Of a stretch of DNA of 64,000 nucleotides, positions 49,308-63,641 are shown piece after piece. The stretch is taken from contig OY970327.1 of assembly GCA_963717365.1 (NCBI GenBank), positions 1,055,752 to 1,119,751 of the forward strand, read 5' to 3'. The notes under the pieces are model-generated. The model did not search any database and had not been told where the DNA came from. It was given only the letters and a program-made list of their open reading frames with translations. The DNA is from Candidatus Saccharimonadia bacterium (GTDB lineage: Bacteria > Patescibacteriota > Saccharimonadia > Saccharimonadales > 2-12-FULL-41-12). Positions within the stretch are counted from its first letter, which is position 1; each line of letters begins with the position of its first letter. The position numbers and the translations under genes are program-made.

Positions 49308-49440
49308 CTATCCTTTATCTTTACAATGATCTTAGATTAAGCGTAACGGTTTTAGCTAGTCAACGCAAGGACAAGCGATTGACTTTTTATGATAAATAAG
49401 CATAATATAAGAAGTTAATCGCCGAATTTCCCATAGAAAA

Positions 49441-49460
49441 TGGGCCCATAGCTCAGCCGG
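49441..49460 (+). repeat. Duplicated 5' fragment of tRNA-Lys (20 nt)
   Basis: TGGGCCCATAGCTCAGCCGG at 49441-49460 is identical to 49559-49578. The upstream CCGAATTTCCCATAG and CCGGATTTCCTACCATCG are also related. A TTGACT-16-CATAAT promoter lies at 49379-49406. Confidence 0.7.
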
Positions 49461-49559
49461 AGCAGCTTGCTGCAAATTCAATTAATAGCACTATGTGCTC
49501 TAATCGGCTGACGAAGAACGGTTATTACAAATTAACGACCGGATTTCCTACCATCGTGT

Positions 49560-49636
49560 GGGCCCATAGCTCAGCCGGTTAGAGCACCTGCCTTTTAAGC
49601 AGGGTGTCCTGGGTTCGAGTCCCAGTGGGCCCTCCA
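49560..49636 (+). tRNA. tRNA-Lys (anticodon TTT)
   Basis: GGGCCCA-TA-GCTC-AGCCGGTT-AGAGC-A-CCTGC-CTTTTAA-GCAGG-GTGTC-CTGGG-TTCGAGT-CCCAG-TGGGCCC-T-CCA. Confidence 0.9.
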
Positions 49637-51271
49637 AGTTTGCAAAATAGGCACTAAAGCCCTTTCTAACTCCTTAGATTGGGCTTTTTTGTTAGTTACA
49701 ACCCAGAGGTAGCGTTTTTCTAGATCTGAATAGCCGTCAGCAATAGGGGCGAGCCACTCATTTGGTTCAATTAACAGTTTGTTGTCTTTCAGTGTTAGCT
49801 GTTGTCCAAGCGTTAAGAGAATATCTCGCTTAGTTACAACGTCACCATTCTCAAAACGCTTTTGAGCATTTACTGCGAAGTTAAAAGCTCGTTCGTGCAT
49901 TTCGGTATTCTGCTCCGTGCGCTGTTCCGTGTTTCTGAGCTTTTCATCTATCAGTGCTAAGTCTGACTTTTTAGTTTCTTTATGGCGTTTGTATTCATCT
50001 TCATCTATAAGTTTGCTGTGTAAATCGTCCAGAAGCCTATCTATGTCTGATTGAAGCTGGTTCCTTTTGTTTTGTAGCTGTTCATAGATTTTCTTACGGT
50101 CTTTTACCTCTACCTTATGATTTCTCTTAAGAATTTTTAAAGCCAAATCTCTGAACTCTGGAATAATTGTGTACTTTTCTAATTCTGCTAGAATGTCTTT
50201 TTCAATAGTTTCAGCGTGAGTATATTTGGTTTGTGTGCAAGGGCGATCCATGCTTTTACGAGAGCAGTAATAGTACACGTAAGTAGCATACTTGTTTTGG
50301 CTCTTGATGAATTTTGTGTTGTGCCTAACCTGTATTGTGCAGTTACACTCCCCGCACTTTATCATTCCTGCAAACGGATAGTCATACCCACCTAGTCGTT
50401 TGTTACCCTTAGCACCAAGTATGTCCTGCGCCAGCCTATATTCTGATTCTGTAATCATAGGGTCATAGTTACCAGTGTATTTTTCGCCCAAGTGGTAGTA
50501 ATTTCCAATATAGAAATTGCTTTGAAGAATTCTATAAACCATTGCCTTGGTCATCGGCTTGCCGCCCATGGGTGCACCGTCTTTTCTGCGCTTATACATG
50601 GGAGTTTTGTAGTCAGTTTCCTCAACGACCTTGTGCCAGATCTGTGAAGGGTTTAGGCGTTCATATAAAAACCATTTCCACATATTCTTAATGATGTCAT
50701 AGCGTTCAGGATCGTTTACGGTTTCAGTAATAATTTTTTTGTCTCTCATGACTGCATTGCCGAACTCATCAAGTATGGGTGCTTTTTTATAGCCTGGCAT
50801 AACACGTCCTGGCTTTTCGCCAGTACCAGCTTTAGTTTTTAAGCCACGAGATACATCAACACCTTGTTTTGCCGACTGATACTGTCCCTGATTCATGACA
50901 ATCTGCAACATCATGATTCCTTCGGGATTATTATCAAAGTTGTACGAACAGAATTGCAGGTCTTTTAAGTAGCTTCTAAGGGCATAAGTAATTTGTGCAC
51001 TATCTACCTCATTTCTTGAAAGTCTGTTCGGGTGCCATGCAACAATGCCGTCAGCTTCACCGTTCTGCAGCATTTCCATCATTTCGTTAAAAATTGGACG
51101 ACCAGGAGTAAATGCGCTACGGCTTTCTGCGTCCATCCATTTTACAATATTCAAATGTTTAAACTTTTCTTTGATGTTTTCGATTTGGCTTATATGCGAA
51201 AGCTCTTGTTTCTCTTTATCTTCCGATGATTTTCGGACGTAAGCTATGTATCTTAATTTGTTCTTTTTCAT
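49595..51271 (-). CDS. Large serine recombinase (integrase)
   Basis: N-terminal resolvase domain YIAYVRKSSEDKEKQELSHISQ and WHPNRLSRN. Recombinase domain, zinc ribbon CGECNC...YYYCSRK, and a long coiled-coil. The last 14 codons are encoded antisense to the tRNA-Lys 3' half. Confidence 0.85.
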   Translation of the reverse strand: MKKNKLRYIAYVRKSSEDKEKQELSHISQIENIKEKFKHLNIVKWMDAESRSAFTPGRPIFNEMMEMLQNGEADGIVAWHPNRLSRNEVDSAQITYALRSYLKDLQFCSYNFDNNPEGIMMLQIVMNQGQYQSAKQGVDVSRGLKTKAGTGEKPGRVMPGYKKAPILDEFGNAVMRDKKIITETVNDPERYDIIKNMWKWFLYERLNPSQIWHKVVEETDYKTPMYKRRKDGAPMGGKPMTKAMVYRILQSNFYIGNYYHLGEKYTGNYDPMITESEYRLAQDILGAKGNKRLGGYDYPFAGMIKCGECNCTIQVRHNTKFIKSQNKYATYVYYYCSRKSMDRPCTQTKYTHAETIEKDILAELEKYTIIPEFRDLALKILKRNHKVEVKDRKKIYEQLQNKRNQLQSDIDRLLDDLHSKLIDEDEYKRHKETKKSDLALIDEKLRNTEQRTEQNTEMHERAFNFAVNAQKRFENGDVVTKRDILLTLGQQLTLKDNKLLIEPNEWLAPIADGYSDLEKRYLWVVTNKKAQSKELERALVPILQTWRAHWDSNPGHPA

Positions 51272-51328
51272 TGAGTTCCTACTGCTTAATTATATGATTC
51301 CTCTCGGGTATAGGTCTATGCATGAAAA

Positions 51329-51763
51329 TTAAAATGGAATTATACTGTGCTCTGGTTCTTCGTCTGAATCTTCTACTTGAAATTCACCTTCTTCAGCAAA
51401 TGTATACCGATACCACAATGTATTCTTAAAGTCTTCACGATCAATCATGTCTACTGGTATTACTTTTATCCCATATTTTTCAAAACCAACTATAAGATAA
51501 AGTGCCTGTGCATAGTCTCGTGAAATTACATCCTGATCGGTAACCAGCATAGTTTTTACATTTTCGTTTATGCAATAGTCAAAAATATTCACAAGGTGGC
51601 TATATCCATTGCCAGTATGCTCAAAGTCTTTTACGACTGTTATGCCATGCTCTTTAGCGTATCTTTCAATCTTTAATGCCTGATTTTCCAGATCAACCGA
51701 CCTCTTTCCTCTAGTACTTTTTGCTGTCCGTAGATAGGCTACAGCCTTCAAATTGTTATTCAT
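51329..51763 (-). CDS. Resolvase N-terminal-domain-like protein without an HTH, with Ala at the expected catalytic Ser position
   Basis: AVAYLRTAKSTRG...LENQALKIERYAKEHGITVVKDF...MLVTDQDVISRD follows the Y-x-R-x-S...Q...DRxSR layout of serine recombinases but reads R-T-A. Confidence 0.45.
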   Translation of the reverse strand: MNNNLKAVAYLRTAKSTRGKRSVDLENQALKIERYAKEHGITVVKDFEHTGNGYSHLVNIFDYCINENVKTMLVTDQDVISRDYAQALYLIVGFEKYGIKVIPVDMIDREDFKNTLWYRYTFAEEGEFQVEDSDEEPEHSIIPF

Positions 51764-51860
51764 GTTATCCTTTTATATTTATCTAAATTAGTAAGTATCT
51801 AAGTATTAAGAATCTTAGTAATAAGGATCTAAAAGTTTATATAAAACTAATTAGTCGCAA

Positions 51861-52136
51861 TTACAGACTCTCCTCAACGGCTTCAATAGCTGCCATTTCT
51901 ATTACTTGCCATAGTGGGCTTTTCCTTGAAAGCTCAAATGGTGTTTTCCATTCTTCGTGTATATTGAGTATCTTCGGCTGGTAAACCCTGAACTTTCCAA
52001 CATCAGCGTGTAATGTAATGACTCTGATACTGTTCACATGCAAGCCTACATAGGGAAAAAATACTTTTACGTAATGTGTACCGTTTACATTGGTGCTAGT
52101 AACTTCCGCTCGGTAGTCGCTAAAGTCTATAAGCAT
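51861..52136 (-). CDS. Hypothetical protein (91 aa), faint SpoVG-like pattern
   Basis: ORF in the leftward operon. Family resemblance is weak. Confidence 0.35.
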   Translation of the reverse strand: MLIDFSDYRAEVTSTNVNGTHYVKVFFPYVGLHVNSIRVITLHADVGKFRVYQPKILNIHEEWKTPFELSRKSPLWQVIEMAAIEAVEESL

Positions 52137-52378
52137 TTCTCCACCTCGTTAATCTCGTGCCAAAGCAAGTGCAGTTTGCTAGCCCAATCATCTTCATGGG
52201 AACACTTACCGCAGTAAGCTCTGTCTAGTTGAGCTTCTCTGAGTTCATCGTTAATACGCTTAGATCTACGCTGATTTGTTACAAATCGCTTTCTCAGCCA
52301 CGTTGGCACAGAATGCCCGTACTGCTTAAACAGCCATTTGGTTTCATTGTGCGTCACGCTGTCCATTTCAATTATCAT
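52127..52378 (-). CDS. Hypothetical protein (83 aa)
   Basis: ORF in the leftward operon that overlaps the next gene by 10 nt. Confidence 0.4.
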   Translation of the reverse strand: MIIEMDSVTHNETKWLFKQYGHSVPTWLRKRFVTNQRRSKRINDELREAQLDRAYCGKCSHEDDWASKLHLLWHEINEVEKCL

Positions 52379-52455
52379 TTTTGATCCGAACTTTAAGGAA
52401 TGAAGCTCTTTCCGAAATCACTGTTCGGGCAGCAACTTGATATTGCATATCTTTT

Positions 52456-52659
52456 TTATTTTTCTGTGCTTTTTTGTTTGGACTTGCTTGATGTAACTTT
52501 TCCATAAAGCTCCTCTTTTATTGTTGGCGGTTTGTAAGTTAATTCAACTTGCCGTACGAGCAAAGACAATTTCAACCTTGCTGTATCGTTGTCCAGCTTT
52601 ACGCCGAACATGTCGCTATACAGCTTCTTGATTTCTTTGATGTCGCTCTGATTTAACAT
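52456..52659 (-). CDS. Hypothetical protein (67 aa)
   Basis: ORF only. Confidence 0.35.
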   Translation of the reverse strand: MLNQSDIKEIKKLYSDMFGVKLDNDTARLKLSLLVRQVELTYKPPTIKEELYGKVTSSKSKQKSTEK

Positions 52660-52850
52660 TCATTGCTTCCTTGTTTATAAGAAAGAAAGGGTGTCCAACG
52701 ATGCAAAGACTTACTACACAAGTCTTTTAGGGTACGCACGTCAGACACCCCTAACGGTAATAGTAATGTGCCAGAAGCAGCAGCGTGTTCACTAACGAAA
52801 GGAGTAGCCTTTTTATTTTTGTTGGTTGCTGTTGCTTCTGTCATCATCAC
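52653..52850 (-). CDS. Hypothetical protein (65 aa), doubtful
   Basis: ORF only, with odd composition. Confidence 0.2.
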   Translation of the reverse strand: MMMTEATATNKNKKATPFVSEHAAASGTLLLPLGVSDVRTLKDLCSKSLHRWTPFLSYKQGSNEC

Positions 52851-52916
52851 ACTCTAATTTTAGTGCAATGCAACATTTTGCACCTGATGACAAGTTCTGC
52901 AACTTTTTGTCCCCAC

Positions 52917-53651
52917 CTACATAGGTTTTTTGTAACGAGCTACAATCTTTTTCACTTTGTCCCGTGCGTAATCGGTATTATCATCTAGGTCTTTGCCGTA
53001 TTCGTATGGGAAGTATTTTTTGGCTAAGTCGCCATAGGTCATACCCTTTTGCCTATCAAGGTAAATCTTGTTTTTAAGTATATCGGCATATATTGGCGCA
53101 GTGCTGGGCTTATTCAAAAACCACTTTAGTTTGTTCCATGCCTTCCTGTAATCCTCTGCGCTTAGACCTCTATCCAGCCGAAGCACTATGGAGTTTCTGT
53201 CTTCACTTACACCAACTGCTTCTATTTTAAATGTGTGAACTGGCTTTATGGTTTTGGGTTCTTTGCCTAAAGCTATAAATGCTTCTGTAAATGCGTACCA
53301 GCCATAATGTAGATTTGCTTCCTCGTTTGCCTTAGTGACAATTTCATAAATCTTGTGGTCGTATTCACGGTATTTAGCTTCTGATATTGTTCTAAACCCA
53401 ATCTTTTGACCTGCTAACTTACCCATAAGCCAAAGGCTTATCTTGCCTTCATCTTCTGTATCAGAATAGAAATCGGTAAGCCCTAACTCTTTACGGGCAC
53501 TCTTTATCGCATTGAGGAAAGACTTCTCTTTAACAACGTGCTTAGTATCTGTGTGTTGTATCTGTTTGTCAGAGTCTAAAACGCTACTTAACATTAAGTT
53601 CATGCGTCTAACGTCAGGGTCATAATCTTTTTTACTGCTCGTCTTTACCAT
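52917..53651 (-). CDS. Hypothetical protein (244 aa), element-encoded
   Basis: ORF only. No family recognised. Confidence 0.5.
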   Translation of the reverse strand: MVKTSSKKDYDPDVRRMNLMLSSVLDSDKQIQHTDTKHVVKEKSFLNAIKSARKELGLTDFYSDTEDEGKISLWLMGKLAGQKIGFRTISEAKYREYDHKIYEIVTKANEEANLHYGWYAFTEAFIALGKEPKTIKPVHTFKIEAVGVSEDRNSIVLRLDRGLSAEDYRKAWNKLKWFLNKPSTAPIYADILKNKIYLDRQKGMTYGDLAKKYFPYEYGKDLDDNTDYARDKVKKIVARYKKPM

Positions 53652-53728
53652 AGATATGTCTATTGTAGAGCCGTTGCACTAAAAAGCGCCAATCCTCTAT
53701 GTTATTTCACTGTTATTAACGGTTTTTG

Positions 53729-53899
53729 TTATAAACTTTTTTGCTGCTTCTGGGAGTGATCTGCGTCTGTACTTGCTGCTGCATGTAAGTTTCTAATCAT
53801 CATCTTGACCGAGTGTTCAGTTGGCGGTTTAGTGCCAGACCAGTCAATGGGCGGTCTTTTCTTTAACTCTTGCCGTACTCTTTTGCGTAATTCTTCCAC
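53729..53899 (-). CDS. Candidate 56-aa basic protein at the head of the leftward operon
   Basis: GTG start at 53897-53899 reading VEELRKRVRQELKKRPPIDWSGTKPP... It is below the ORF-track cutoff and is speculative. Confidence 0.2.
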   Translation of the reverse strand: MEELRKRVRQELKKRPPIDWSGTKPPTEHSVKMMIRNLHAAASTDADHSQKQQKSL

Positions 53900-54071
53900 A
53901 CTTATAGTTTATGACGGGTCACATATGGCTGTATAGGGCTAGTACAGGCTATGTAAGCTGTTGCAAGTTTGTTTGCCTACATTATCATTAGATAACAGAG
54001 ATTGTAAGGTGTATTATGAGATAAACGTTTTGGCGTGTTTTTATTACAGAAATATATGAATATGAGAAAAA

Positions 54072-55757
54072 ATGACTAATCCTAAAAACCAAGCTGCACT
54101 TATATGGAATATTGCAGATATTTTACGTGGTGGTTGGAAGCAGCACGAATATCAAGATGTGATCTTACCTCTAGTTGTATTAAAGCGCCTTGACTCAGTT
54201 TTAGCAGACAGTAAGCGCAAAGTACTCCAGACCAGTAATCAAATGGCGGGCACTATTTCTGACGAGTCGCTTGCCAAGTTTTTAGAAAAAGAGTCGGGTT
54301 ATAAGTTCTATAACACTAGTCCTTACGACTTCCAGAAGCTTTTAGAGGATAGCGAGGGTATTTACGCTAATTTTGTTAATTATATAGACGGCTTCAGCCC
54401 CAATGTACGTGATATTATCGAGAAATTTGATTTCCAAAAGCAGCTTAATAAGCTAAAAGGTGGCAAGATACTTCACCTTGTAATTAAGGAGCTCGACAAA
54501 GTAGACCTTAGCCCCAAGCACGTTTCTAATCATGACATGGGATATATATTCGAGGAGCTAATTAGGAAGTTTAACGAGCAGTCTAACGAAACAGCAGGTG
54601 AACACTACACGCCTCGCGAGGTAATTGCACTCATGGTAAGGCTATTACTTGAACCAGATAAATCACACATTACTGGCGAGCAGAAGATTATCGAAATATA
54701 TGATCCGTGCTGTGGCACAGGCGGTATGTTAACAATTGGAAAAGACTACATACTTGAGCATATTAATCCTAACGCTCAGGTTTATCTTTATGGGCAGGAA
54801 CTTAACTCGCAAACTTACGCCATAGCAAAATCAGACTTACTTATTAAAGGTGAAGATGCAGACCGAATAAAAGGCGGAAGCGGCGAACATAGTGAAGACA
54901 GCACTCTAAGCAACGATCAATTTTATGAAAAGAATTTTGACTATGTTATAGCTAATCCACCTTACGGGGTAGATTGGAAAAAGGATAAGGACGCGGTTGA
55001 AGCAGAAGCTGCACGCGGCGACGCAGGACGTTTCCCAGCAGGCACACCTGCCGTAAGTGACGCTCAGTTACTGTTCCTGCAACACATGGTTAGTAAAATG
55101 CGCACCGTGCACGAGGGCGGTGGACGTGTTGCCGTTGTACATAATGGATCCCCATTGTTTACTGGCGCCGCAGGCAGTGGCCCAAGTAATATTAGAAAGT
55201 ATTTGCTAGAGAACGACTTACTCGAAGCCATTATCGCACTACCGACCAACATGTTCTACAACACCGGCATCGCCACTTATATATGGGTGCTAACCAACCG
55301 CAAGCACGAAGCTCGTAAGGGCAAAGTCCAGCTTGTAGATGCCAGCAATATCTTTCACAAACTTCGCAAAAACCTGGGTGACAAAAACAAAGAAATGACA
55401 GTTGAAGACATAAACGAAGTCTACGATCTGTACGAAAAGTTCAACCAAACCAAGCGCAGCAAGATTTTTAATACTTCCGACTTTGGATACACACAGGTAA
55501 CGGTGTTGAACGACAAAGAAAAAGACACTGAAAACGTACCCCTTGACGAAGATATTGAAGAATACTTCAAGCGCGAAGTACTGCCACACCTGCCAAATGC
55601 CAAACTTGACCGCAAAAAAGACAAAATTGGTTATGAAATACCATTCAACCGTTACTTTTACGAATACAAACCACCGCGCGATCTAGACGAAATAGATGAC
55701 GATCTACAAGCTGTGACTAAAGACATTTTGAAGCTACTTAACGAGGTGACAGACTGA
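54072..55757 (+). CDS. hsdM: Type I restriction-modification system, DNA methyltransferase subunit
   Basis: N-terminal HsdM domain (LIWNIADILRG), SAM motif DPCCGTGGML, and catalytic IANPPYG. Confidence 0.95.
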   Translation: MTNPKNQAALIWNIADILRGGWKQHEYQDVILPLVVLKRLDSVLADSKRKVLQTSNQMAGTISDESLAKFLEKESGYKFYNTSPYDFQKLLEDSEGIYANFVNYIDGFSPNVRDIIEKFDFQKQLNKLKGGKILHLVIKELDKVDLSPKHVSNHDMGYIFEELIRKFNEQSNETAGEHYTPREVIALMVRLLLEPDKSHITGEQKIIEIYDPCCGTGGMLTIGKDYILEHINPNAQVYLYGQELNSQTYAIAKSDLLIKGEDADRIKGGSGEHSEDSTLSNDQFYEKNFDYVIANPPYGVDWKKDKDAVEAEAARGDAGRFPAGTPAVSDAQLLFLQHMVSKMRTVHEGGGRVAVVHNGSPLFTGAAGSGPSNIRKYLLENDLLEAIIALPTNMFYNTGIATYIWVLTNRKHEARKGKVQLVDASNIFHKLRKNLGDKNKEMTVEDINEVYDLYEKFNQTKRSKIFNTSDFGYTQVTVLNDKEKDTENVPLDEDIEEYFKREVLPHLPNAKLDRKKDKIGYEIPFNRYFYEYKPPRDLDEIDDDLQAVTKDILKLLNEVTD

Positions 55758-57037: not shown

Positions 57038-57759
57038 TAGACCAATATGAAGTGGCTAAACGGGTTGTTGGCGCCGGATTTGGCAAAGGTTCTATAGGTA
57101 TTTATAAGTCCGAGGTCGTAAAGATAATTCAAGAGCGCGTTGGCGGCTTGTGCGCAGATCACAGAACCTTTGTGTATGTACGAGCGAACAGGCTGCACAC
57201 AGGTCAAGAGCTGGGTGGGGGCAATATAACATCAGCCCTAGCTGCTTTCAGCGCGCTAAGCTTGCTAACAAAAATCTGTTACTTCATAGACAAGCCACAA
57301 AGGTTCACGCCACATGATTCCGTATACTTCACCGTGAACGAGACCGATGCATTTAGGCACTTTGTAAAACGACTCTCAGAAAACGGTATAGAACTAGGCA
57401 TAGATAAGGATGACTCAGACGGGCAGAAATTAATTTGGAATGGCTTTAGGGACTATCTAGCTCACCTCGGGACAGTTGAACATGGTAAGCAAGTAGTATC
57501 ATTTGAGTTTAAGCAACCCAGGCGTGGTCAGTCCGCACCTACATTGGACGCTAGAATTGAGAAAATGTCTGAGTGGCAAGTGTTTGAACACGACGGTGGA
57601 AATCGCAATTGGCGTGTATACATTGATGTGCTATTTGCAAAGCTAGAGAAAATTATTCTGCCATTTGTAGTTACGAAAGTTATTGAATATGCAGTTGCTG
57701 AAGATGAAGCAGCAAGAAATCTATACAAGTTAGTGTCTGGGGAGAAAGACTTATTATGA
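57034..57759 (+). CDS. Unknown 241-aa protein embedded between hsdS and hsdR, with an RxxxxH (HEPN-like) motif
   Basis: ATGA overlaps at both ends show translational coupling. NGFRDYLAHLG (R139-H144, nt 57448-57465) fits the HEPN Rx4-6H pattern. No other family recognised. Confidence 0.6.
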   Translation: MIDQYEVAKRVVGAGFGKGSIGIYKSEVVKIIQERVGGLCADHRTFVYVRANRLHTGQELGGGNITSALAAFSALSLLTKICYFIDKPQRFTPHDSVYFTVNETDAFRHFVKRLSENGIELGIDKDDSDGQKLIWNGFRDYLAHLGTVEHGKQVVSFEFKQPRRGQSAPTLDARIEKMSEWQVFEHDGGNRNWRVYIDVLFAKLEKIILPFVVTKVIEYAVAEDEAARNLYKLVSGEKDLL

Positions 57760-60740
57760 TAGACCTTAAGGAAACAAACTTCGAAAAGTTCATAACTGAT
57801 TTTTTGGTCAAGACCAATACATACGCACTTCGCGGTGCCGATGAAAAAGGTGTTCCAGTTAAAGATAAACACTATGACCGCGAGTTAGCGCTAGACTTAG
57901 AAACACTGAAAAACTTTATCGAAGCAAGCCAACCAAAAGAGTGGAAACGATTACAGGAAATCTATGGTGATGAAGCGATACAAGGCTTTGCAAAACGTCT
58001 AGACCAAGAACTTACACAGATAGGTGTGCTAGAAGTAATACGAAATGGTGTGTCAGACCGCGGTGTACACATTGACCTTATGTACAAGCGCCCGAATACT
58101 GGATTTAATCCTGAAAGTGAACGCCTTTACGGGCTAAATCAGTTTAGCGTAATGCGTCAAGTGTATTTTAGCCCTAAAGACCAACGATCAGTTGATATTG
58201 TGCTGCTACTTAATGGCATTCCCGTTGTAACGATGGAATTAAAGAATCAACTCACTGGACAAAATGTACAGCACGCCATACACCAGTACAAAGTTGATCG
58301 CATGCCTAGCGACAAACTGTTCGCATTTAAGCGCTGTCTAGTGCATTTTGCAGTAGATAATAATCAAGTGTTTATGACTACAAAAATTGAGGGACTCGCT
58401 ACGTACTTCCTGCCGTTTAATAAGGGTGCTGATAACGGTGCAGGAAATCCTCAAGTAGACGGCAAATTCGCATCTTATTACCTTTGGGAAGACGTACTTA
58501 CTAAGGATAGCTTATTAGAAATTATCAGCCGCTTTATGCACGTACAGGTTGAGAAAAAGAAAGACCCCAAGACAGGCAGAATTATTAAAAAAGAATTGCT
58601 CCTTTTCCCACGCTACCATCAACGTGATGTTGTGCGAAAATTGATTGAAGACGCGCGTGAAAATGGTGCTGGTAAGAATTACTTGATTCAGCACAGCGCA
58701 GGATCAGGCAAATCTAATTCTATAGCATGGACTGCGCACAACTTAAGTGATCTACATAACTCTATAGACAAGAAAGTTTTCGATAAGATTATCATAATCA
58801 CTGATAGGCGAGTACTTGATAAGCAACTTCGCGACACGGTAAGTCAGTTTGAGCAACAAGTAAACGTTGTTAAAGGGGTTACTAAATCGAGCGAACTGCG
58901 TGATGCATTGCAGGATAAAACGAAAATTATCGTATCAACGCTACAAAAGTTTCCTGTGATTGTAGAAGATATGGAACGTATACAAGGTAAGACTTTTGCA
59001 ATAATTGTTGACGAGGCTCATTCAAGCCAAAGTGGCGAAAGCACTAAGGCACTAAAACAGACTCTGAACAAGCTTGAAGATGCAGAGAATGAAGATGAGC
59101 AGAACAAACAAGAATATGACCCAGAAGTTCAGTTTGCACTAGATGTACAGTCTGCAAGGGGAAAGTTGCCGCACGTTAGTTTTTTTGCGTTTACGGCCAC
59201 GCCAAAAGAAAAAACACTCGAACTGTTTGGCGAAAAAGGTACAGACGGTAAGTTTTATCCATTTAGCTTATACAGCATGAAACAGGCAATCCAAGAGGGC
59301 TTTATCTTAGATGTTCTTCAGAACTACACAACTCATAAGATGTACTTTGAGTTGATTAAAAAAGCTGCTAATTACGACCCTGAATTTGAAAAGAAGAAAG
59401 CTTATAGGCTTGCTATTAGTTACGCTGACTTGCACGAGCACGGCATTGAGAAAAAAGCCGAACTTATGGTGGAGCACTTCCACAGTCAGATAGAGCGACT
59501 TATTAAAGGACAAGCAAAGGCAATGATTGTTACTAAGTCACGCTTACACGCTGTACGGTACTTCTTAGCTGTAAGGGACTACCTAACTAAACAAAGCTTC
59601 CCTTTTCAAGCTGTTGTGGCATTCTCGGGTACTGTCGTGGATGCCAGCCGCGGCGGAATTGAGTATACGGAAGCAGGGCTAAATGGCTTCTCAGAGCTGC
59701 AGACAGTTGAGAAGTTTGACGAGGATGCGTTTAAGATACTGATCGTTGCGAATAAGTTTCAAACAGGTTTTGACCAACCAAAATTGGCAGCTATGTACGT
59801 TGATAAAAAATTGGGCGGAGTCGCAACTGTACAAACACTGAGTCGTTTAAACCGAACGATGGGCAAGATTAAAGACAATGTATTTGTACTTGATTTTGTT
59901 AATGACCCAGCAAATATACAAAAGGATTTCCAACCGTACTACACAAGCACAATATTGTCGGAATCTACTGACCCAAACATTTTGTACGACCTAAAGAGGG
60001 ATATTCTCGGTGCTGGTTTATTTGGCGAAGAACAGGTAGCTCAACACTACACACTGCTGGTATCTGATAACCAAGAAAATCAGGCTGTAGTTGCGGGATT
60101 GCTTGACGAGGCAGTACAAAACTTTGATGCACTTGATGAAGACGACCAAGAAGAATTCCGAGGCAAATTAATAGACTTTGTGCGCAAATATGCCTTTATT
60201 GCGCAGTTGTTTGACTTTGGCGATGGCAAGTTGGAACAGTTCTACGAGTACACACGTAACTTGAATAAAAAGCTTCCTAGAAAAAAAGAGAAAATGCCGA
60301 TAGAGTTGCTAGACCAAATTGATCTAAGTAGTATCGCCGTATCTAAGGGCACTAAAAATACAATCGGTCTTGTTGATACTGAAACAGAGTTAGAGCCAAT
60401 GAGCAGTAACTCACGTGGTGGTAGACCGCTCGATGAGATGGAACGCCTTTCACTAATAGTAAAAAGTATCAATGAACAGTTCGGACTGCCTGAGGGCATG
60501 GAAGAAGACGGAATGTTACTTGTTTCACGTATAAAAGATCGTGATGACGTTAAGAAAGCAATTGCCAATAACCCCAAAGGAGCCGCAAAGACTCGTTTTA
60601 GTGAGGTAATGCAGGAAGAACTAATGAAAATGTTTGCTGAAAGAGCAGAGTTCTACAAGACACTAGACGGTGATGCAGCCTTGAAAGAAACTATTTCTGA
60701 AAAAATATTTGACGAGCTATATAAGCAGGTGAAGTCATGA
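57756..60740 (+). CDS. hsdR: Type I restriction enzyme, restriction (helicase-nuclease) subunit
   Basis: Walker A QHSAGSGKS, DEAH box IVDEAHSSQSG, helicase C-terminal motifs (QTGFDQP, TLSRLNR), and an N-terminal nuclease region (DIVLLLNGIPVVTMELK). Confidence 0.95.
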   Translation: MIDLKETNFEKFITDFLVKTNTYALRGADEKGVPVKDKHYDRELALDLETLKNFIEASQPKEWKRLQEIYGDEAIQGFAKRLDQELTQIGVLEVIRNGVSDRGVHIDLMYKRPNTGFNPESERLYGLNQFSVMRQVYFSPKDQRSVDIVLLLNGIPVVTMELKNQLTGQNVQHAIHQYKVDRMPSDKLFAFKRCLVHFAVDNNQVFMTTKIEGLATYFLPFNKGADNGAGNPQVDGKFASYYLWEDVLTKDSLLEIISRFMHVQVEKKKDPKTGRIIKKELLLFPRYHQRDVVRKLIEDARENGAGKNYLIQHSAGSGKSNSIAWTAHNLSDLHNSIDKKVFDKIIIITDRRVLDKQLRDTVSQFEQQVNVVKGVTKSSELRDALQDKTKIIVSTLQKFPVIVEDMERIQGKTFAIIVDEAHSSQSGESTKALKQTLNKLEDAENEDEQNKQEYDPEVQFALDVQSARGKLPHVSFFAFTATPKEKTLELFGEKGTDGKFYPFSLYSMKQAIQEGFILDVLQNYTTHKMYFELIKKAANYDPEFEKKKAYRLAISYADLHEHGIEKKAELMVEHFHSQIERLIKGQAKAMIVTKSRLHAVRYFLAVRDYLTKQSFPFQAVVAFSGTVVDASRGGIEYTEAGLNGFSELQTVEKFDEDAFKILIVANKFQTGFDQPKLAAMYVDKKLGGVATVQTLSRLNRTMGKIKDNVFVLDFVNDPANIQKDFQPYYTSTILSESTDPNILYDLKRDILGAGLFGEEQVAQHYTLLVSDNQENQAVVAGLLDEAVQNFDALDEDDQEEFRGKLIDFVRKYAFIAQLFDFGDGKLEQFYEYTRNLNKKLPRKKEKMPIELLDQIDLSSIAVSKGTKNTIGLVDTETELEPMSSNSRGGRPLDEMERLSLIVKSINEQFGLPEGMEEDGMLLVSRIKDRDDVKKAIANNPKGAAKTRFSEVMQEELMKMFAERAEFYKTLDGDAALKETISEKIFDELYKQVKS

Positions 60741-61294
60741 GATCCAAGACTATCCAGATATTTCTAAAAGACTACGAACAAGACAGTATAAAAATTGCGG
60801 AGCTATCGAATAGCATGGCAAAAGTTTTTGTAATCCCCCGGGATGAACTTGACTGGGCTAAATCTCGAAAAGAATTACAGCAACCAGCACTTTATATGCT
60901 TTTCGACGATGAGAGAACCACTGTTTATATAGGTGAATGTGAGAACTTCAACAATAGAGTAAAAGACCACGCTATCAAGAAACCATTTTGGCAGTCGGCG
61001 GTTATTTGTGTGAGTAGTAGTGATGGTATCAATAAAGCGGATGTTAAGTTCCTTGAGTCGTATTCGATTCAGAAAGCTATTGAAATAGGTCGCTTCAATA
61101 TCCAAAACATGAATTCGCCAACACCCATTACGATGAGAGAATTCGATAAAGCTACAATTCTGGATTACTTTACTGATGTTGAGCTTTTGCTGACAACTTT
61201 GGGATATAACCTGTACGAACCACTCAAAGATGAATCAAATGCCGAGGTAATTACAGCACCACCGACTTCAGTAAAGGATGAGAAGGCTATATGA
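60737..61294 (+). CDS. GIY-YIG-like protein resembling the N-terminal module of DUF4357-family R-M-associated proteins
   Basis: KTIQIFLKD...PALYMLFDDERTTVYIGECENFNNRVKDHAIKKPFWQSAV...KFLES. The ATGA overlaps the hsdR stop. Confidence 0.55.
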   Translation: MRSKTIQIFLKDYEQDSIKIAELSNSMAKVFVIPRDELDWAKSRKELQQPALYMLFDDERTTVYIGECENFNNRVKDHAIKKPFWQSAVICVSSSDGINKADVKFLESYSIQKAIEIGRFNIQNMNSPTPITMREFDKATILDYFTDVELLLTTLGYNLYEPLKDESNAEVITAPPTSVKDEKAI

Positions 61295-61673
61295 TACTAT
61301 TGTCGCACCTTGCTCTGGCAATGGATTTCAAGAAGCATTTGTAAATAAAAGCGCATGGTGGGCTGTTAGAGTAGGTCAAACCTCACTACCAAAGCTAAAA
61401 TATATAGCTCTGTATGAGTCTGCACCAACAAGTGCCATACGTGCATATGCAAAGATTGACAGGATTGAACCATATCAAAACAACCCCGGGAAATACATTA
61501 TTCACCACGACAGCAACATCGTTTACTTTGAAAATCCGATTGAGCTCGGTAAGTATTCAAATCTAGCTTTGCAAGGCTCAAGATATTACAAACTATCAGA
61601 CATGGAAGCATCAAAAGATATGGCTGAATTAACTGACAGGACATACGGGACTTCCTTATCAATCCATGAGTAA
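61278..61673 (+). CDS. Unknown 131-aa protein coupled to the GIY-YIG-like gene
   Basis: 17-nt overlap with the upstream gene. WWAVRVGQTSLPKLKYIALYESAPTSAIRAYAKIDRIEPY... No family assigned. Confidence 0.5.
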   Translation: MRRLYDTIVAPCSGNGFQEAFVNKSAWWAVRVGQTSLPKLKYIALYESAPTSAIRAYAKIDRIEPYQNNPGKYIIHHDSNIVYFENPIELGKYSNLALQGSRYYKLSDMEASKDMAELTDRTYGTSLSIHE

Positions 61674-61908
61674 CGAGTTAACTTTAACTATTGAGGAAGC
61701 TCGAAAAATCCTAGGAAAAGATTCTGATGGCATGACTGATCTTGAAATCGAAGAAGTAATCTCAACACTAGACTTAATGGCCAAGGATGCAATAAAGGTT
61801 AGTAAGGAGAAGTTGCTGATGAATCGTGATGCCAAAAGAATGGCAGAGCTTATTTACGATATTTATCAGGATAAAAAAATGAGGCAATCTCGCAAAGATG
61901 CCCCATAG
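61666..61908 (+). CDS. Unknown 80-aa protein, last gene of the R-M operon
   Basis: 8-nt overlap (ATGAGTAA) with the upstream gene. Confidence 0.45.
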   Translation: MSNELTLTIEEARKILGKDSDGMTDLEIEEVISTLDLMAKDAIKVSKEKLLMNRDAKRMAELIYDIYQDKKMRQSRKDAP

Positions 61909-61926
61909 TTTTAGGTTTGCCCAGCT

Positions 61927-62142
61927 CTAGCTTGTATGACACGCAGTGGAGCAGTAATAGCAGCCATTTATTCTTGCGTTCGGCCACTTGTGCTTCGCAG
62001 CCGTTACAGCTTCCCAGCAGTCGTTGAAGTTACCTAAGCCTATACGATTTTCTTCGTCAGGAGCATGACCGCACCCAGTCGTATGAACTTCGTGGTCACC
62101 ATTTTCTTGGGCGTTCTTGTTGATGTAGTAGTACGACATCAT
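61927..62142 (-). CDS. Small Cys/His-rich protein (71 aa)
   Basis: HEVHTTGCGHAP...NDCWEAV...INGCYYCSTACH suggests metal binding. Confidence 0.5.
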   Translation of the reverse strand: MMSYYYINKNAQENGDHEVHTTGCGHAPDEENRIGLGNFNDCWEAVTAAKHKWPNARINGCYYCSTACHTS

Positions 62143-62375
62143 TAACCCTTTGGCGGGAAGTTATCTTTTTTAGGCGGTACGGTATCAGCAGCTCTGAACT
62201 TGTTGTCCGTTCCCTGAATCCTCAACTCACCCCCGCCGTTGCTACGCATACTGTTGCGAGTCTGCGAAATTACATCGGCTTGTCGTGGACCAGTAAAACC
62301 TGCCCGTTGCGCACCTTGAGCGACGGCGCGGTATCCGTCTTTTCTATTACCGCTTACATAGTAATTTTTAGCCAT
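62142..62375 (-). CDS. DUF2188-family protein
   Basis: YRAVAQGAQRAGFTGPRQADVISQTR...GGELRIQGTDNKFR...PPKG matches the DUF2188 pattern. AAGGAG RBS. Confidence 0.55.
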   Translation of the reverse strand: MAKNYYVSGNRKDGYRAVAQGAQRAGFTGPRQADVISQTRNSMRSNGGGELRIQGTDNKFRAADTVPPKKDNFPPKG

Positions 62376-62451
62376 TGTTTTGGCTCCTTATAGTTAGTTG
62401 GTGTTGTGCTAAAATAAGGAGCGTACAAACGTGTCAAAACTAAGTACACCC

Positions 62452-62480
62452 GACACCAGTTAGCGCTGGTGTCTTTTCTT
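62452..62480 (+). terminator. Rho-independent terminator (plus strand)
   Basis: GACACCAG-TTAGCG-CTGGTGTC followed by TTTTCTT. Confidence 0.55.
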
Positions 62481-62626
62481 ATTCTAGCTATTTTGTTAAG
62501 GATCGGCAGAGACGACCCTGCCAACGCTTGCGAGATCCCAAAACTTTATTTTAGAAAACTCACCTCTATACTAACAGTTCAGATATAGTTAATCAACTAT
62601 TTCGTAACCAAAAACCGTAAGTTGGT

Positions 62627-62655
62627 TTGACAGGGACAATTGCTACCCCTATAAT
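62627..62655 (+). promoter_or_regulatory. Perfect consensus promoter TTGACA-17-TATAAT upstream of the repressor gene
   Basis: TTGACA at 62627-62632 and TATAAT at 62650-62655. Confidence 0.65.
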
Positions 62656-62693
62656 AGGGGTAATGCACGAAGTACAACGAGAGGCTACTTGCG

Positions 62694-63299
62694 TTGGCGG
62701 ACACAGAAGACTTGGGCGGGAGTAGCTATTATGCGCTTGCGAGGAAGTTGGGTGTAGCCAATCATGGCAGCGTTAAATTCCATTTAGACCAGCTTTTAGA
62801 TAAAGGTTTAGTGTTCCGCAACCAGAAAACTGGTGAAATCACCAAAGTCAGCAATGGCGAGAAGTTTCTGGGTCTATTAAGCATACCCATTATGGGTGAG
62901 GCAAACTGTGGCGCAGCCACCAGCGTTGCCGATGACAGGGTAAAAGAATTCTTAAGACTATCACCGTCTTTGCTACCGAAAGTAAAACTTGATATGCTTT
63001 ACGCACTAAAAGCCGTCGGTAATTCTATGAATGCAGCGAACATTGCTGGTAAGGCTATTGGAAACGGTGATTATGTATTGGTAGAGAAAACTGACAACGT
63101 GACGAGTGGCGATTATGTTGTTTCTATATTTGATGAAGTTGCCAACATTAAGAAATTGGTTTTTGACCCAGCTAATTCTAGAGTTCTACTACTTTCAGAG
63201 TCTACTGACCCTATGCCGCCAATCGTTGTGTCCGAAGAAGACAGTGGCGCATACTCAATCGCTGGCAAGGTGGTTGATGTTGTTCCATCTGCTTATTAG
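62694..63299 (+). CDS. LexA/CI-like repressor (wHTH plus S24 peptidase domain)
   Basis: YYALARKLGVANHGSVKFHLDQLLDKGLV (wHTH). AVGNSMNAANI (catalytic Ser) and ANIKKL (Lys) form the S24 dyad. TTG start from the ORF track. The frame is open from 62664 (see findings). Confidence 0.75.
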   Translation: MADTEDLGGSSYYALARKLGVANHGSVKFHLDQLLDKGLVFRNQKTGEITKVSNGEKFLGLLSIPIMGEANCGAATSVADDRVKEFLRLSPSLLPKVKLDMLYALKAVGNSMNAANIAGKAIGNGDYVLVEKTDNVTSGDYVVSIFDEVANIKKLVFDPANSRVLLLSESTDPMPPIVVSEEDSGAYSIAGKVVDVVPSAY

Positions 63300-63368
63300 G
63301 TTGATAATTCAGCGATATAAAGTTGGGGCTTGTCCGCTAGTTTAGTTGCAATAGTTTGCAACATGCTC

Positions 63369-63427
63369 CTCCAAAAGAAAAACACATCGACATTTCGCTA
63401 CCTCGTCGATGTGTTTTTCTTTTGGAG
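63369..63427. repeat. Perfect 23-bp inverted repeat (hairpin) near the right end of the element
   Basis: CTCCAAAAGAAAAACACATCGAC (63369-63391), a 13-nt loop, then GTCGATGTGTTTTTCTTTTGGAG (63405-63427). Confidence 0.75.
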
Positions 63428-63545
63428 CAGCTAATGAGTCGAGAACCCAGATCTTTTGCGTTAGCAAAAGTGGGTTCGGCGAAGAGAAGCCACGCACAGG
63501 TGTTTGCACCGAGCATGGCTGAACGAAAGAAGGGCGAAGCCCGCT

Positions 63546-63562
63546 GTCCCAGTGGGCCCTCC
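63546..63562 (+). repeat. Right copy of the 17-bp direct repeat (putative attR core, displaced tRNA-Lys 3' fragment)
   Basis: GTCCCAGTGGGCCCTCC is identical to 49619-49635. Confidence 0.65.
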
Positions 63563-63641
63563 GCAGCTTACCAAGCAGCTGATACTTGCAAAAATTGCAT
63601 AATAAACCGCGCTTAACGATTCTAATTGTTATACTAAGCCA

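Follow-up and report, generated by a model that had tools for sequence, protein, structure and literature searches.

What mobilises the defence-gene island that stands beside a tRNA-Lys gene in the DNA analysed here, and where exactly does this island begin and end? The window, i.e., the whole stretch of 64,000 nucleotides under study, comes from a Saccharibacteria genome, and the initial annotation had drawn the element from one copy of a 17-bp repeat to the other. We find a mobile defence island of 13.7 kb at the extreme end of the tRNA-Lys gene of a tiny genome (Saccharimonadales, a CPR chromosome). In the reading that we favour, with a probability of about 0.82, positions 49638-63367 are an integrative island of a Saccharibacteria-wide family, whose divergent large serine recombinase (LSR) recombines an attB at the tRNA-Lys 3' terminus with an attP in the 3' end of the gene encoding it and has its C-terminal tail swapped in the process; the island would combine a core with swappable defence cargo, and the 17-mer would be a separate matter.

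Borders of the island and the 17-bp repeat

The sites at and around the two junctions are as follows.

49560-49636, plus strand: tRNA-Lys(UUU), intact (ARAGORN; Rfam 72.4 bits), B arm of attL
49631-49637, plus strand: attL core CCTCCA(A), i.e., the last two acceptor bases, the discriminator, CCA and one A
49638-49695, plus strand: P' arm (AGTTTGCAAAATAGG...) and hairpin (49658-49693) with a T-run, inside the LSR coding sequence of the opposite strand
63316-63367, plus strand: P arm of attR, whose minus strand holds the excised-form LSR tail codons
63368-63374, plus strand: attR core CCTCCA(A), about 180 bp inside the right border of the initial annotation
63365-63431, plus strand: host terminator hairpin, the original tRNA terminator (B' arm), outside the island
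49441-49559, plus strand: upstream module X on the host side, outside the island, separating the tRNA from its promoter (49379-49406)
63432-63563, plus strand: downstream module Y, host side, outside the island

The true span of the island is 49638-63367 (13,730 bp), flanked by the 6-7 bp repeat CCTCCA(A). The CCTCCA of the tRNA passes into the island P' arm without a gap in all 21 junctions compared, and the stem of the P' hairpin is kept by compensatory changes between islands (GCCC/GGGC vs GCCAG/CTGGC). On the right, a conserved GTTGCAATAG (63345-63354) lies 13 nt ahead of the attR core. The same layout, a GTTGCAATAG-like stretch, 13 nt, CCTCCA and then host sequence, is common to the window and to the islands L024 (11.5 kb), L029 (6.1 kb) and L034 (10.9 kb), and in the window, L024 and L034 the host sequence that follows is the terminator hairpin. 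When four islands with both ends seen and two natural attP sites are compared, CCTCCA(A) is the sole sequence common to attL, attR, attP and attB; a core of 6-7 bp is usual for serine recombinases. The predicted attB of the window reads ...GTCCCAGTGGGC-CCTCCAA-AAGAAAAACACATCGAC and the predicted attP ...GTTGCAATAGTTTGCAACATGCT-CCTCCAA-GTTTGCAAAATAGGCAC. Both att arms are intact and agree with the family consensus.

Relatives that lack the segment give the same picture. In L001, the nearest relative free of the island, whose flanking genes have 80% amino acid identity and the same synteny, the tRNA is followed directly by the hairpin and module Y, and none of the island genes is found at the tRNA-Lys site; a hairpin equivalent to 63365-63431 stands directly 3' of tRNA-Lys in island-free relatives. 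The GC content of the island is 40.8% in comparison to 44.1% for the host, and below the lowest host window of equal size (42.2%), while its tetranucleotide distance of 0.0151 exceeds the host maximum of 0.0094. With closest relatives free of the island and a composition outside the host range, the initial annotation was right to see here an LSR-associated island of defence genes integrated at tRNA-Lys in a CPR chromosome.

Its choice of the 17-mer as attL and attR is another matter. The 17-mer GTCCCAGTGGGCCCTCC is indeed exact and beyond chance: it has exactly two copies, at 49619-49635 and 63546-63562, where 0.01 matches are expected, and two copies arose in none of 100 shuffles. The first copy, in the T-arm and acceptor of the tRNA, reaches from the final two bases of the T-loop through the 3' strands of T-stem and acceptor to the discriminator and CC; the second is module Y's sense copy of tRNA positions 60-76. 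However, L001 has a version of the repeat of its own, likewise in two copies, which are spaced by 168 nt, and since this pair exists without an island, the repeat predates the island and is independent of it. Comparable repeats, 121-176 nt from the tRNA and with no island between the copies, occur in L001, L005, L010, L012 and L018. The junctions are instead the CCTCCA(A) copies at 49631-49637 and 63368-63374.

Both modules mimic the tRNA. Module X repeats tRNA positions 1-19/20 in sense (49441-49460) and positions 28-12 in antisense (approximately 49495-49511), a layout also seen in L018, L024, L027 and L049. In module Y the 5' T-arm region is copied twice, in antisense and then in sense, with an apical hairpin between the two; a structured insert of about 65 nt and the sense copy of positions 60-76 come next. 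Its size and architecture are conserved across genera, and positions 63424-63545 are 88% identical to the module in L001. Covariation in the insert is strand-specific (94% of cells paired, double changes in 15 of 27 pairs, none of 500 shuffles reaching this level, and one G.U pair invariant), and three consecutive compensatory pairs distinguish the window from L001. We conclude that the 17-mer repeat is part of a separate, conserved, host-side, RNA-like module downstream of tRNA-Lys.

Module Y might instead be a scar, or a miniature non-autonomous derivative, of another integrative element with a T-loop-type att site, and no functional RNA at all. We consider this doubtful, but it is a serious alternative: the repeat boundary falls in the T-loop (tRNA positions 56-60), the copy is degraded in L007, L010 and L013, gene order diverges directly after the repeat, and module X mirrors the layout at the D-loop. 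However, no long integrase-bearing version was found within 10 kb at the 12 loci checked, and antisense tRNA copies are unexpected in an att scar; the conserved size and architecture, the strong, strand-specific covariation and the compensatory pairs also speak against a scar.

The recombinase gene, its attP site and the core operon

The leftward genes of the island are the following.

49595-51271, minus strand: LSR, integrated form, 558 aa, with Pfam Resolvase, Recombinase and Zn_ribbon_recom domains
51329-51763, minus strand: 144-aa protein with a resolvase catalytic domain alone, its R-x-S nucleophile motif out of register (R-T-A-K-S)
51861-53651, minus strand: leftward core operon o91, o83, o67, o65, o244

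The LSR matches PF00239 (E=2.5e-17), PF07508 (1.2e-5) and PF13408 (1.8e-10). R13 and S15 of the R-x-S nucleophile motif are invariant among 34 sequences, as are cysteines C306, C309, C311, C336 and C345 in or near the zinc-ribbon stretch, and residues from approximately 380 to 470 contain much charged, heptad-like sequence. The ORF is full length with all invariant residues. Judged by its sequence, with a catalytic domain, a recombinase domain and zinc ribbon, and a short att core, the protein is a large serine recombinase. No annotated phage or plasmid LSR is more than 25.5% identical to it, and the sequence match in the PDB, 3g13, is weak.

The LSR reading frame runs across the crossover site. 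As attP lies within the frame of the recombinase itself, integration rewrites the LSR C-terminus: the last 11 codons and the stop (49595-49597) of the integrated gene are tRNA antisense, whereas in the excised form (570 aa) the ORF extends 22-23 codons beyond WR to a stop in six of six attP configurations. A tRNA-Lys (UUU or CUU) lies antiparallel at the LSR 3' end in 21 loci, and among 120 clusters of LSR homologues 113 have a tRNA-antisense tail and two an attP-type tail. These comparisons establish where the island ends, which site it targets, how attP is built and that the tail is swapped.

In the mechanism that we propose, the LSR would recombine two sites, an attP within the 3' end of the gene that encodes it and an attB centred on the tRNA-Lys 3' terminus, and the crossover would fall inside CCTCCA(A). 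The tRNA would stay intact after integration, with the island hairpin (49658-49693) as its replacement terminator and the original one displaced by 13.7 kb. At the same time, the 22-23-residue C-terminal tail of the 570-aa LSR would give way to 11 residues from the tRNA antisense strand, yielding the 558-aa form. One may speculate, although we think it unlikely, that attP inside the LSR frame acts as a built-in state sensor, i.e., that the tail swap alters activity, stability or partner binding and so helps to set the direction of recombination, with or without a separate directionality factor. If true, a serine recombinase would itself be the object of an "integration-dependent" switch. The conservation of the excised-form tail could also reflect, in part, a DNA-level constraint on the P arm and not protein function.

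The leftward operon ending in the LSR is the conserved core of the island family. The block of genes reported by the initial annotation is present, but their description as orphans does not hold throughout, since o67 (52456-52659) is conserved in approximately 27 related LSR loci. A fold search with o67 gave no match. As a candidate for a directionality factor or regulator, o67 ranks first; the directionality factor may be o67 or a neighbouring small protein.

Cargo and mobility of the island family

The remaining part of the island is occupied by the cargo.

54072-60740, plus strand: type I R-M operon hsdM-hsdS-o241-hsdR (Pfam; PADLOC REase_I)
57034-57759, plus strand: o241, 241 aa, between hsdS and hsdR, with an invariant Rx4H motif
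60737-61294 and 61278-61673, plus strand: PDC-S14 candidate defence gene in two ORFs (E=7.5e-52)
61666-62375: o80 (plus strand), a Cys-rich 71-aa protein (minus strand) and DUF2188 (minus strand, 62142-62375)
62627-62655, plus strand: sigma-70 promoter of perfect consensus, ahead of the S24 repressor gene
62694-63299, plus strand: LexA/CI-like S24 repressor gene (Peptidase_S24, PF00717 1.3e-14)

Pfam agrees with the initial annotation on the LSR, the type I R-M operon, DUF2188 and the S24 repressor between the 17-mer copies. HsdM (N6_Mtase and HsdM_N), HsdS (two Methylase_S target-recognition stretches) and HsdR (HSDR_N, SWI2_SNF2/ResIII and T1R_D3) are all present and full length. In having an extra gene between hsdS and hsdR, overlapping stop and start codons and a HEPN-type Rx4H motif, o241 recalls the prr locus of E. 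coli, which has the order hsdM-hsdS-prrC-hsdR. The product of prrC cleaves the anticodon of tRNA-Lys and combines an ABC-type NTPase domain with a C-terminal HEPN nuclease domain. Position and motif would fit such a nuclease; however, o241, at 241 aa and without the ATPase domain, gave no family match, no NTPase domain and no significant fold match, and we do not regard it as a member of the PrrC family. Both PDC-S14 parts have relatives in L036, and DUF2188 matches the candidate defence family PDC-S16. The putative S24 repressor scores 65 bits against TIGR00498 (lexA), under the 111-bit cutoff; its sequence shows a serine motif, GNSM, and a possible cleavage site at Cys-Gly, and Pfam detected no DNA-binding domain in it. 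It may tie expression to DNA damage. The cargo is made up of swappable defence genes. Here these are a type I R-M system, in which an Rx4H protein is embedded, PDC-S14 and PDC-S16; the LexA/CI-like repressor comes in addition.

The predicted P-core-P' junction is present in L061 and L062, both without a tRNA. L062 (one contig from one assembly) has a terminal overlap of 30 nt and probably represents a circle of about 8,030 bp, which points, on sequence grounds, to a family member in circular form. An identical attP-type LSR, again without a tRNA, is encoded by L063 and L064, which come from other samples. In L023 the LSR is 94% and o244 91% identical, but the tRNA-Lys sequence differs and the cargo is of MmeI type. 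An LSR so similar in another host with other cargo implies that the core moved recently; the core appears to move while the cargo is swapped between islands.

We infer that the window copy still excises. It is rather unlikely that, within the revised borders, it has become fixed, domesticated or decayed and no longer does so, as could be suggested by its integrated state at the same site in both available assemblies of the lineage (the second being L065), by the split PDC-S14 and by the non-native tail of the integrated LSR. The complete LSR ORF and the intact att arms argue against this, as does the 94%-identical LSR in a different host with different cargo. Furthermore, in independent Logan contigs the host-side one begins at 63368, the first base of the attR core, and the island-side one ends at approximately 63396, with an overlap of about 30 nt, which fits an alternative junction in the reads. 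We take this break as suggestive, because the same assembly also breaks within the island, at 55248, 52699 and 50486.

It is very unlikely that the element is a prophage, phage satellite or integrated plasmid. A LexA/CI-like repressor behind a strong promoter, a recombinase at one end, as in temperate phages, and the DnaD_N/HTH_36-type protein of the circular-looking 8 kb relative would suit such an origin; the DnaD_N-like protein, however, was found in the relatives L026 and L062 only. Scans with Pfam, PHROGs and NCBIfam revealed no capsid, terminase, portal, tail, packaging, lysis, relaxase or type IV secretion domain, and we rejected a prophage. In the window island no conjugation gene and no transfer or replication function was recognised. 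Moreover, there is no relative in IMG/VR, the nearest phage or plasmid LSR is as distant as noted above, and islands of 6-14 kb are below tailed-phage size.

Finally, that the element is 49619-63562, with the 17-bp repeat as the core of attL and attR after integration into the tRNA T-arm and acceptor, is highly improbable: the exact repeat does run from the T-loop toward the 3' end, as in the classical T-loop-type tRNA att sites of tyrosine-integrase islands, but it is paired without an island in five relatives, positions 63424-63545 are 88% identical to the L001 module, the border lies at CCTCCA beside a conserved P arm both in the other islands and at the two natural attP junctions, and Pfam finds no tyrosine integrase. 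A classical tyrosine-type tRNA island was likewise rejected, as no island ORF has a Phage_integrase domain, the 17-mer pair exists without any island in L001 and other relatives, and the ends are 6-7 bp repeats.

Comparison with known systems

The window LSR resembles phiC31, Bxb1, TP901-1, A118/LI and SPbeta SprA in domain order (resolvase catalytic, recombinase, zinc ribbon) and in the catalytic Arg and Ser. As with known serine integrases, attP and attB share a short identity (6-9 bp), the P and B sites have asymmetric arms that are unlike each other, and the recombinase gene lies beside attP. Unlike in those systems, attB here coincides with the 3' end of a tRNA gene and attP is inside the recombinase frame.

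P4-like and comparable tRNA islands with tyrosine integrases, whose att sites fall into T-loop, anticodon-loop and 3'-end classes, share with the window island the tRNA 3' target, the reconstituted tRNA, the integrase gene beside the tRNA and variable cargo. However, their repeat is 15-50 bp long, whereas here a serine recombinase acts at a 6-7 bp repeat at the acceptor/CCA end; they bring a stretch of tRNA body, while the window island brings a terminator.

SCC elements (SCCmec), mobilised by the Ccr LSRs at the 3' end of rlmH/orfX, are likewise LSR-mobilised, neither phage nor conjugative, and placed at the 3' end of a housekeeping gene. They also have in common with the island family swappable cargo, often with R-M genes, and a circular intermediate, here indicated for one relative. 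They differ in the CcrAB pair as opposed to a single LSR, in the protein-gene target as opposed to a tRNA and in phylum, and in the window system the recombinase gene spans attP.

An attP in coding sequence, with C-termini that differ between the integrated and excised states, is also known from the immunity of the mycobacteriophages BPs and Brujita and from the SSV1-type integrase partition. BPs, Brujita and SSV1 use tyrosine integrases; the altered gene of BPs is the repressor, and the SSV1 integrase gene is split in two. The window system, in contrast to BPs and SSV1, exchanges just the last 22-23 residues of a serine recombinase.

Borders and attachment sites of the island

The initial annotation took a perfect 17-bp direct repeat, GTCCCAGTGGGCCCTCC, as the attachment site and border of an integrative element. 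The repeat itself is real, as the window holds exactly two copies, at 49619-49635 (inside tRNA-Lys(UUU), 49560-49636) and at 63546-63562, where 0.01 matches would be expected by chance. All of the genes named between the copies were also confirmed by Pfam (a large serine recombinase, LSR; a restriction-modification, R-M, operon; a DUF2188 gene; an S24 repressor). However, the repeat does not mark the att sites: in the closest relative, locus L001 (80% amino acid identity in the flank), both copies lie 168 nt apart and nothing island-like stands between them. There, a terminator hairpin whose 5' arm starts with the tRNA's own CTCCA is located directly 3' of the tRNA, followed by a stretch of about 130 nt with 88% identity to window 63424-63545, and then by the 17-mer again, in the L001 version, which has C for the window's T in both copies. 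L005, L010, L012 and L018 are arranged alike, with the copies spaced by 121-176 nt, and L007 and L013 have degraded versions of this arrangement; the repeat in each genome matches the tRNA of that genome. Because L001, L005, L010, L012 and L018 are free of the island and have the repeat pair too, the pair predates the island. The borders had been misassigned, the right end by about 180 bp, and even where a perfect direct repeat taken from a tRNA brackets an island, it need not be the att site, tempting as that reading is.

Comparison with relatives lacking the segment and the shift in GC content both spoke for an inserted element. Island proteins were present in 0 of 22 syntenic loci, while tRNA-Lys was found in the same neighbourhood in 12 of the 15 loci, syntenic for the flanking ATP-grasp gene, that were covered by a tRNA scan. 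GC content of the island is 40.8%, lower than in all host windows of the same size (44.1% for the rest of the window), and its tetranucleotide distance to the host reaches 1.6 times the host maximum. The chromosomal hrcA-grpE-dnaK-dnaJ cluster forms the left flank, the source contig has 1.19 Mb, and the closest genomes to the window are Saccharimonadales MAGs.

In comparison to L001, the insertion lies between the tRNA CCA and the displaced hairpin. The attL junction reads gggc-CCTCCAA-gtttgcaaaatagg and the attR junction tttgcaacatgct-CCTCCAA-aagaaaaacac; the core repeat is located at 49631-49637 and 63368-63374, with 13,730 bp between the copies.

Attachment sites of the island
attL, integrated junction, window copy: ...CCAGTGGGCCCTCCAAGTTTGCAAAATAGG
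attR, integrated junction, window copy: ...TTTGCAACATGCTCCTCCAAAAGAAAAACAC
attB, empty tRNA-Lys site, predicted: ...CCAGTGGGCCCTCCAAAAGAAAAACAC
attP, junction of the island circle, predicted: ...TTTGCAACATGCTCCTCCAAGTTTGCAAAATAGG

Other LSR loci were then searched for the border signature on their island side, and three have it, 11.5 kb (L024), 6.1 kb (L029) and 10.9 kb (L034) away from the tRNA. In each of them, a P arm like GTTGCAATAG is followed by a spacer of exactly 13 nt, CCTCCA and then host sequence, which in L024 and L034 opens with a terminator hairpin. The reconstructed attP (P arm-core-P' arm) was found as natural sequence on L061 and L062, contigs without tRNA which carry two LSR homologues devoid of the usual C-terminus (P0014 and P0074). 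The LSR 3' ends of these contigs lead into ...GTTGCAATAGttttgcacactgc-CCTCCA-agattcaaatatagg... and ...GCTGCTACAGcatctacgatggc-CCTCCA-ggaatcatatatttg.... Since the attP of L029 and L034 departs from attB at position -1, the crossover must fall within CCTCCA(A). Symmetric half-sites were also considered for locating the crossover dinucleotide, and this approach was rejected, as the TTGCAA palindromes of the window are not conserved in other islands.

L062 is an 8,060-nt Logan contig whose ends overlap by 30 nt; it is probably a complete circle of about 8,030 bp, which speaks for a circular form in the family. An island of this family may be present here in a replicating form or just after excision, and the LSR of L062 (P0074) occurs also on L063 and L064, which come from other samples and both lack a tRNA. 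L062 encodes, besides the LSR with attP, a DnaD_N/HTH_36-type protein, DUF5659, an HTH_3 regulator and several uncharacterised proteins.

We conclude that insertion is site-specific, at the terminus of tRNA-Lys, with a core of 6-7 bp, that attP lies within the LSR gene, and that the tRNA is preserved and obtains its terminator from the island. The P' arm contains a hairpin with a T-run (49658-49693) which would terminate the tRNA transcript, the original terminator being 13.7 kb away. This hairpin is kept by compensatory changes between islands despite its position within the LSR coding sequence.

The recombinase family and its exchangeable tail

The LSR (558 aa, 49595-51271, minus strand) contains Resolvase, Recombinase and Zn_ribbon_recom domains (Pfam) and has 641 detectable homologues. 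In all 21 distinct loci in which the 3' end of the LSR gene and enough flank are present (the window included), tRNA-Lys is antiparallel to the LSR and overlaps its ORF, the anticodon being UUU in 6 loci and CUU in 15. Among the 120 best homologue clusters, 100 have the tail W-R-A-x-x-(D/G)-(S/L)-N-P-(R/G)-H-x-A and 13 the tail WRA(Q/I), both of which are the translated antisense strand of the tRNA, while two have an attP-type tail and five are truncated or otherwise odd. The integrated configuration is thereby seen in at least 113 homologue clusters of the 90%-identity protein collection. The homologue P0110, on a 2,767-nt contig, has an odd tail, ...SWYPELDSNQRP, resembling the antisense of another tRNA 3' end, which ends GGGTACCA; one branch of the family may thus have changed its tRNA target, with the junction still at CCA.

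The closest annotated phage or plasmid LSR shows at most 25.5% identity, and the only PDB sequence match, 3g13, is weak. Scanning of IMG/VR with the LSR alignment revealed no relative; a scan of metagenome contigs gave no match with the single LSR protein and 34 loci with the alignment. Neither this family nor any serine recombinase with tRNA-Lys as its target was described in the literature searched. No integrase adjoins either tRNA-Met of the window.

The integrated LSR ORF passes through the P' arm, the core and the antisense strand of the tRNA up to the stop codon TAA at 49595-49597, and yields a 558-aa product with the C-terminus ...QTWRAHWDSNPGHPA. As this TAA is the complement of anticodon bases 2-3 and A37, the stop falls at the same tRNA position in every integrated member of the family, whether the anticodon is UUU or CUU. 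The ORF joined through attP encodes 570 aa, with the C-terminus ...QTWRSMLQTIATKLADKPQLYIAELST. The frame remains open for 22-23 codons past WR in each of the six attP configurations, of which two are natural and four reconstructed, and a motif like (I/V)-x-(S/T)-I-A-T-K-L is common to most of the attP-form tails. Tail codons beyond the usual reach of an att arm differ synonymously (e.g., GAT/GAC, CCA/CCC), which argues for real coding, with constraint on P-arm DNA contributing as well. The LSR tail is exchanged upon integration, and this swap offers a testable regulatory idea.

We propose that the excised circle would express the 570-aa LSR, which would integrate at attB, and that excision would require a small directionality factor. 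The best candidate for the latter, by conservation and position, is the 67-aa island protein o67, whose AlphaFold model, a helical hairpin carrying a basic tail, has no significant PDB match (Foldseek). The S24 repressor could couple expression to DNA damage, and transfer between cells would probably use a route encoded outside the island.

Core operon, cargo and tRNA-derived modules

The family has a conserved core, the leftward operon whose last gene is the LSR, and exchanges cargo around it. Relatives of o67 occur in about 27 LSR loci, and those of o83 and o91 in several. The island of L023 shares o244 (91% identity) and the LSR (94%) with that of the window; its tRNA-Lys is clearly a different one, and an MmeI-type enzyme takes the place of the type I R-M system.

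Features of the island
51329-51763, minus strand: 144-aa protein with a resolvase catalytic domain only, just upstream of the LSR
54072-60740, plus strand: hsdM, hsdS, a 241-aa gene (o241) and hsdR (Pfam for the hsd genes)
57034-57759, plus strand: o241, between hsdS and hsdR, with 4-nt overlaps
60737-61673, plus strand: PDC-S14 candidate defence gene (PADLOC), which looks split into two overlapping ORFs
DUF2188 protein: PDC-S16 (PADLOC)
62694-63299: S24 peptidase repressor (Pfam)

The nucleophile motif of the 144-aa protein is out of register (R-T-A-K-S); this protein, with relatives in L023 and L042, might regulate the LSR or act as its partner. Since hsdS contains no inverted repeats, the R-M system is not phase-variable. 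The o241 protein has an invariant R139-x4-H144 motif of the HEPN type and a confident AlphaFold model (pLDDT 81.7), yet no significant match to a family or PDB fold was obtained (Foldseek). The two PDC-S14 ORFs have 185 and 131 aa, compared to a profile of about 300 aa, and both have relatives in L036. The S24 protein is LexA-like (65 bits, under the equivalog cutoff), and a perfect TTGACA-17-TATAAT promoter stands in front of its gene; no operator motif common to the S24 and leftward-operon promoter regions was found by eye.

Other islands carry Dcm, an NgoFVII-type endonuclease, Z1, Vsr, a Y-family polymerase and SRAP (L024) or a type III R-M system (L026). The family shows shuffling of defence cargo (type I, II, IIG and III R-M; PDC candidates) among reduced genomes. 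A Y-family polymerase gene (IMS domain) adjoins a SRAP (YedK-like) gene at 5360-7587 of L024 and at 4934-7157 of L023. Together with the LexA-like repressor of the window, these pairs suggest that SOS-type modules travel on islands in repair-reduced genomes.

The second copy of the 17-mer belongs to one of two host-side modules next to tRNA-Lys.

Modules derived from tRNA-Lys
63432-63563: module Y, a conserved structured module downstream of tRNA-Lys, containing the second 17-mer
13079-13205 of L001: module Y, also present in L005, L007, L010, L012, L013, L018 and L022
49441-49559: module X, between the tRNA promoter and the tRNA, also present in L018, L024, L027 and L049

Module Y is composed of antisense tRNA about 60-45, an apical hairpin, sense about 43-58, a structured insert of ~65 nt and sense 60-76. 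Across loci the insert has 65-90 nt and is supported by covariation, and the terminal copy of tRNA 60-77 matches each genome's own tRNA. Module X mirrors this upstream, with an exact sense copy of tRNA 1-19/20 followed by antisense 28-12. Between the Y modules of the window and L001 there are three consecutive double compensatory pairs and three wobble-type changes that hold for the tRNA strand only. A second type of insert, distinct in sequence (type B), was found in L005, L007, L012 and L022, and also in L027, there upstream of the tRNA. It forms four helices, including an invariant G.U pair, with 94% of cells paired and 15 of 27 pairs changed on both sides; none of 500 shuffles was as good, and slid controls gave 29-48%. 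In L027, module X is a near-full tRNA-Lys pseudogene with a structured insert of this type. No Rfam family matched module Y or X at permissive thresholds, a covariance model of the type-B insert (R1) detected nothing beyond the five sequences it was trained on and missed the Y module of the window, and RNAalifold on a MAFFT alignment of the divergent Y copies was uninformative. Such flanking repeats accompany 11 of 34 tRNA-Lys genes and 0 of 14 non-Lys tRNAs among the loci examined, which is a small sample. The modules could represent a tRNA-mimic small RNA or a processing element; alternatively, they could be a miniature integrative element, the scar of one, or a decoy attB. This covariation-supported tRNA-mimic RNA module deserves a separate study.

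Probable activity of the window copy and comparison with known systems

By its sequence, the window copy is likely to be active, since an intact LSR ORF with all its catalytic residues is accompanied by two intact arms. The Logan assembly of ERR12037361 has a host-side contig that begins at window 63368 and an island-side contig that ends at ~63396; they overlap by k-1, starting at the first base of the attR core, which is the pattern that a graph branch between attR and attB would give. However, this assembly breaks within the island too, and the island is integrated in a second assembly, L065. The latter (13,265 bp) was considered as an excised circle and rejected, as it turned out to be the island of a variant strain in its integrated form.

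Every membership test for an LSR that was feasible here came out positive, while the tests for a tRNA island of the classical tyrosine-integrase kind and for a prophage were negative; scans with Pfam, PHROG and NCBIfam revealed no phage structural, conjugation or recognisable replication genes in the island. As a serine-integrase island, it works similarly to SCC. New features are the target, i.e., the CCA terminus of tRNA-Lys across the whole clade, the attP inside the recombinase ORF, which leads to tail exchange upon integration, and the setting in Saccharibacteria, a phylum with scarce mobile elements and genetic tools. A large, previously uncharacterised serine integrase clade, dedicated to the tRNA-Lys CCA end in these bacteria, is hereby defined with sequence-level att sites, and the sites and the enzyme are candidates for an integration tool in hard-to-engineer Saccharibacteria. 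Among the cargo, the position of o241 has its counterpart in the E. coli prr locus, where prrC, encoding a tRNA-Lys anticodon nuclease, is likewise wedged between hsdS and hsdR.
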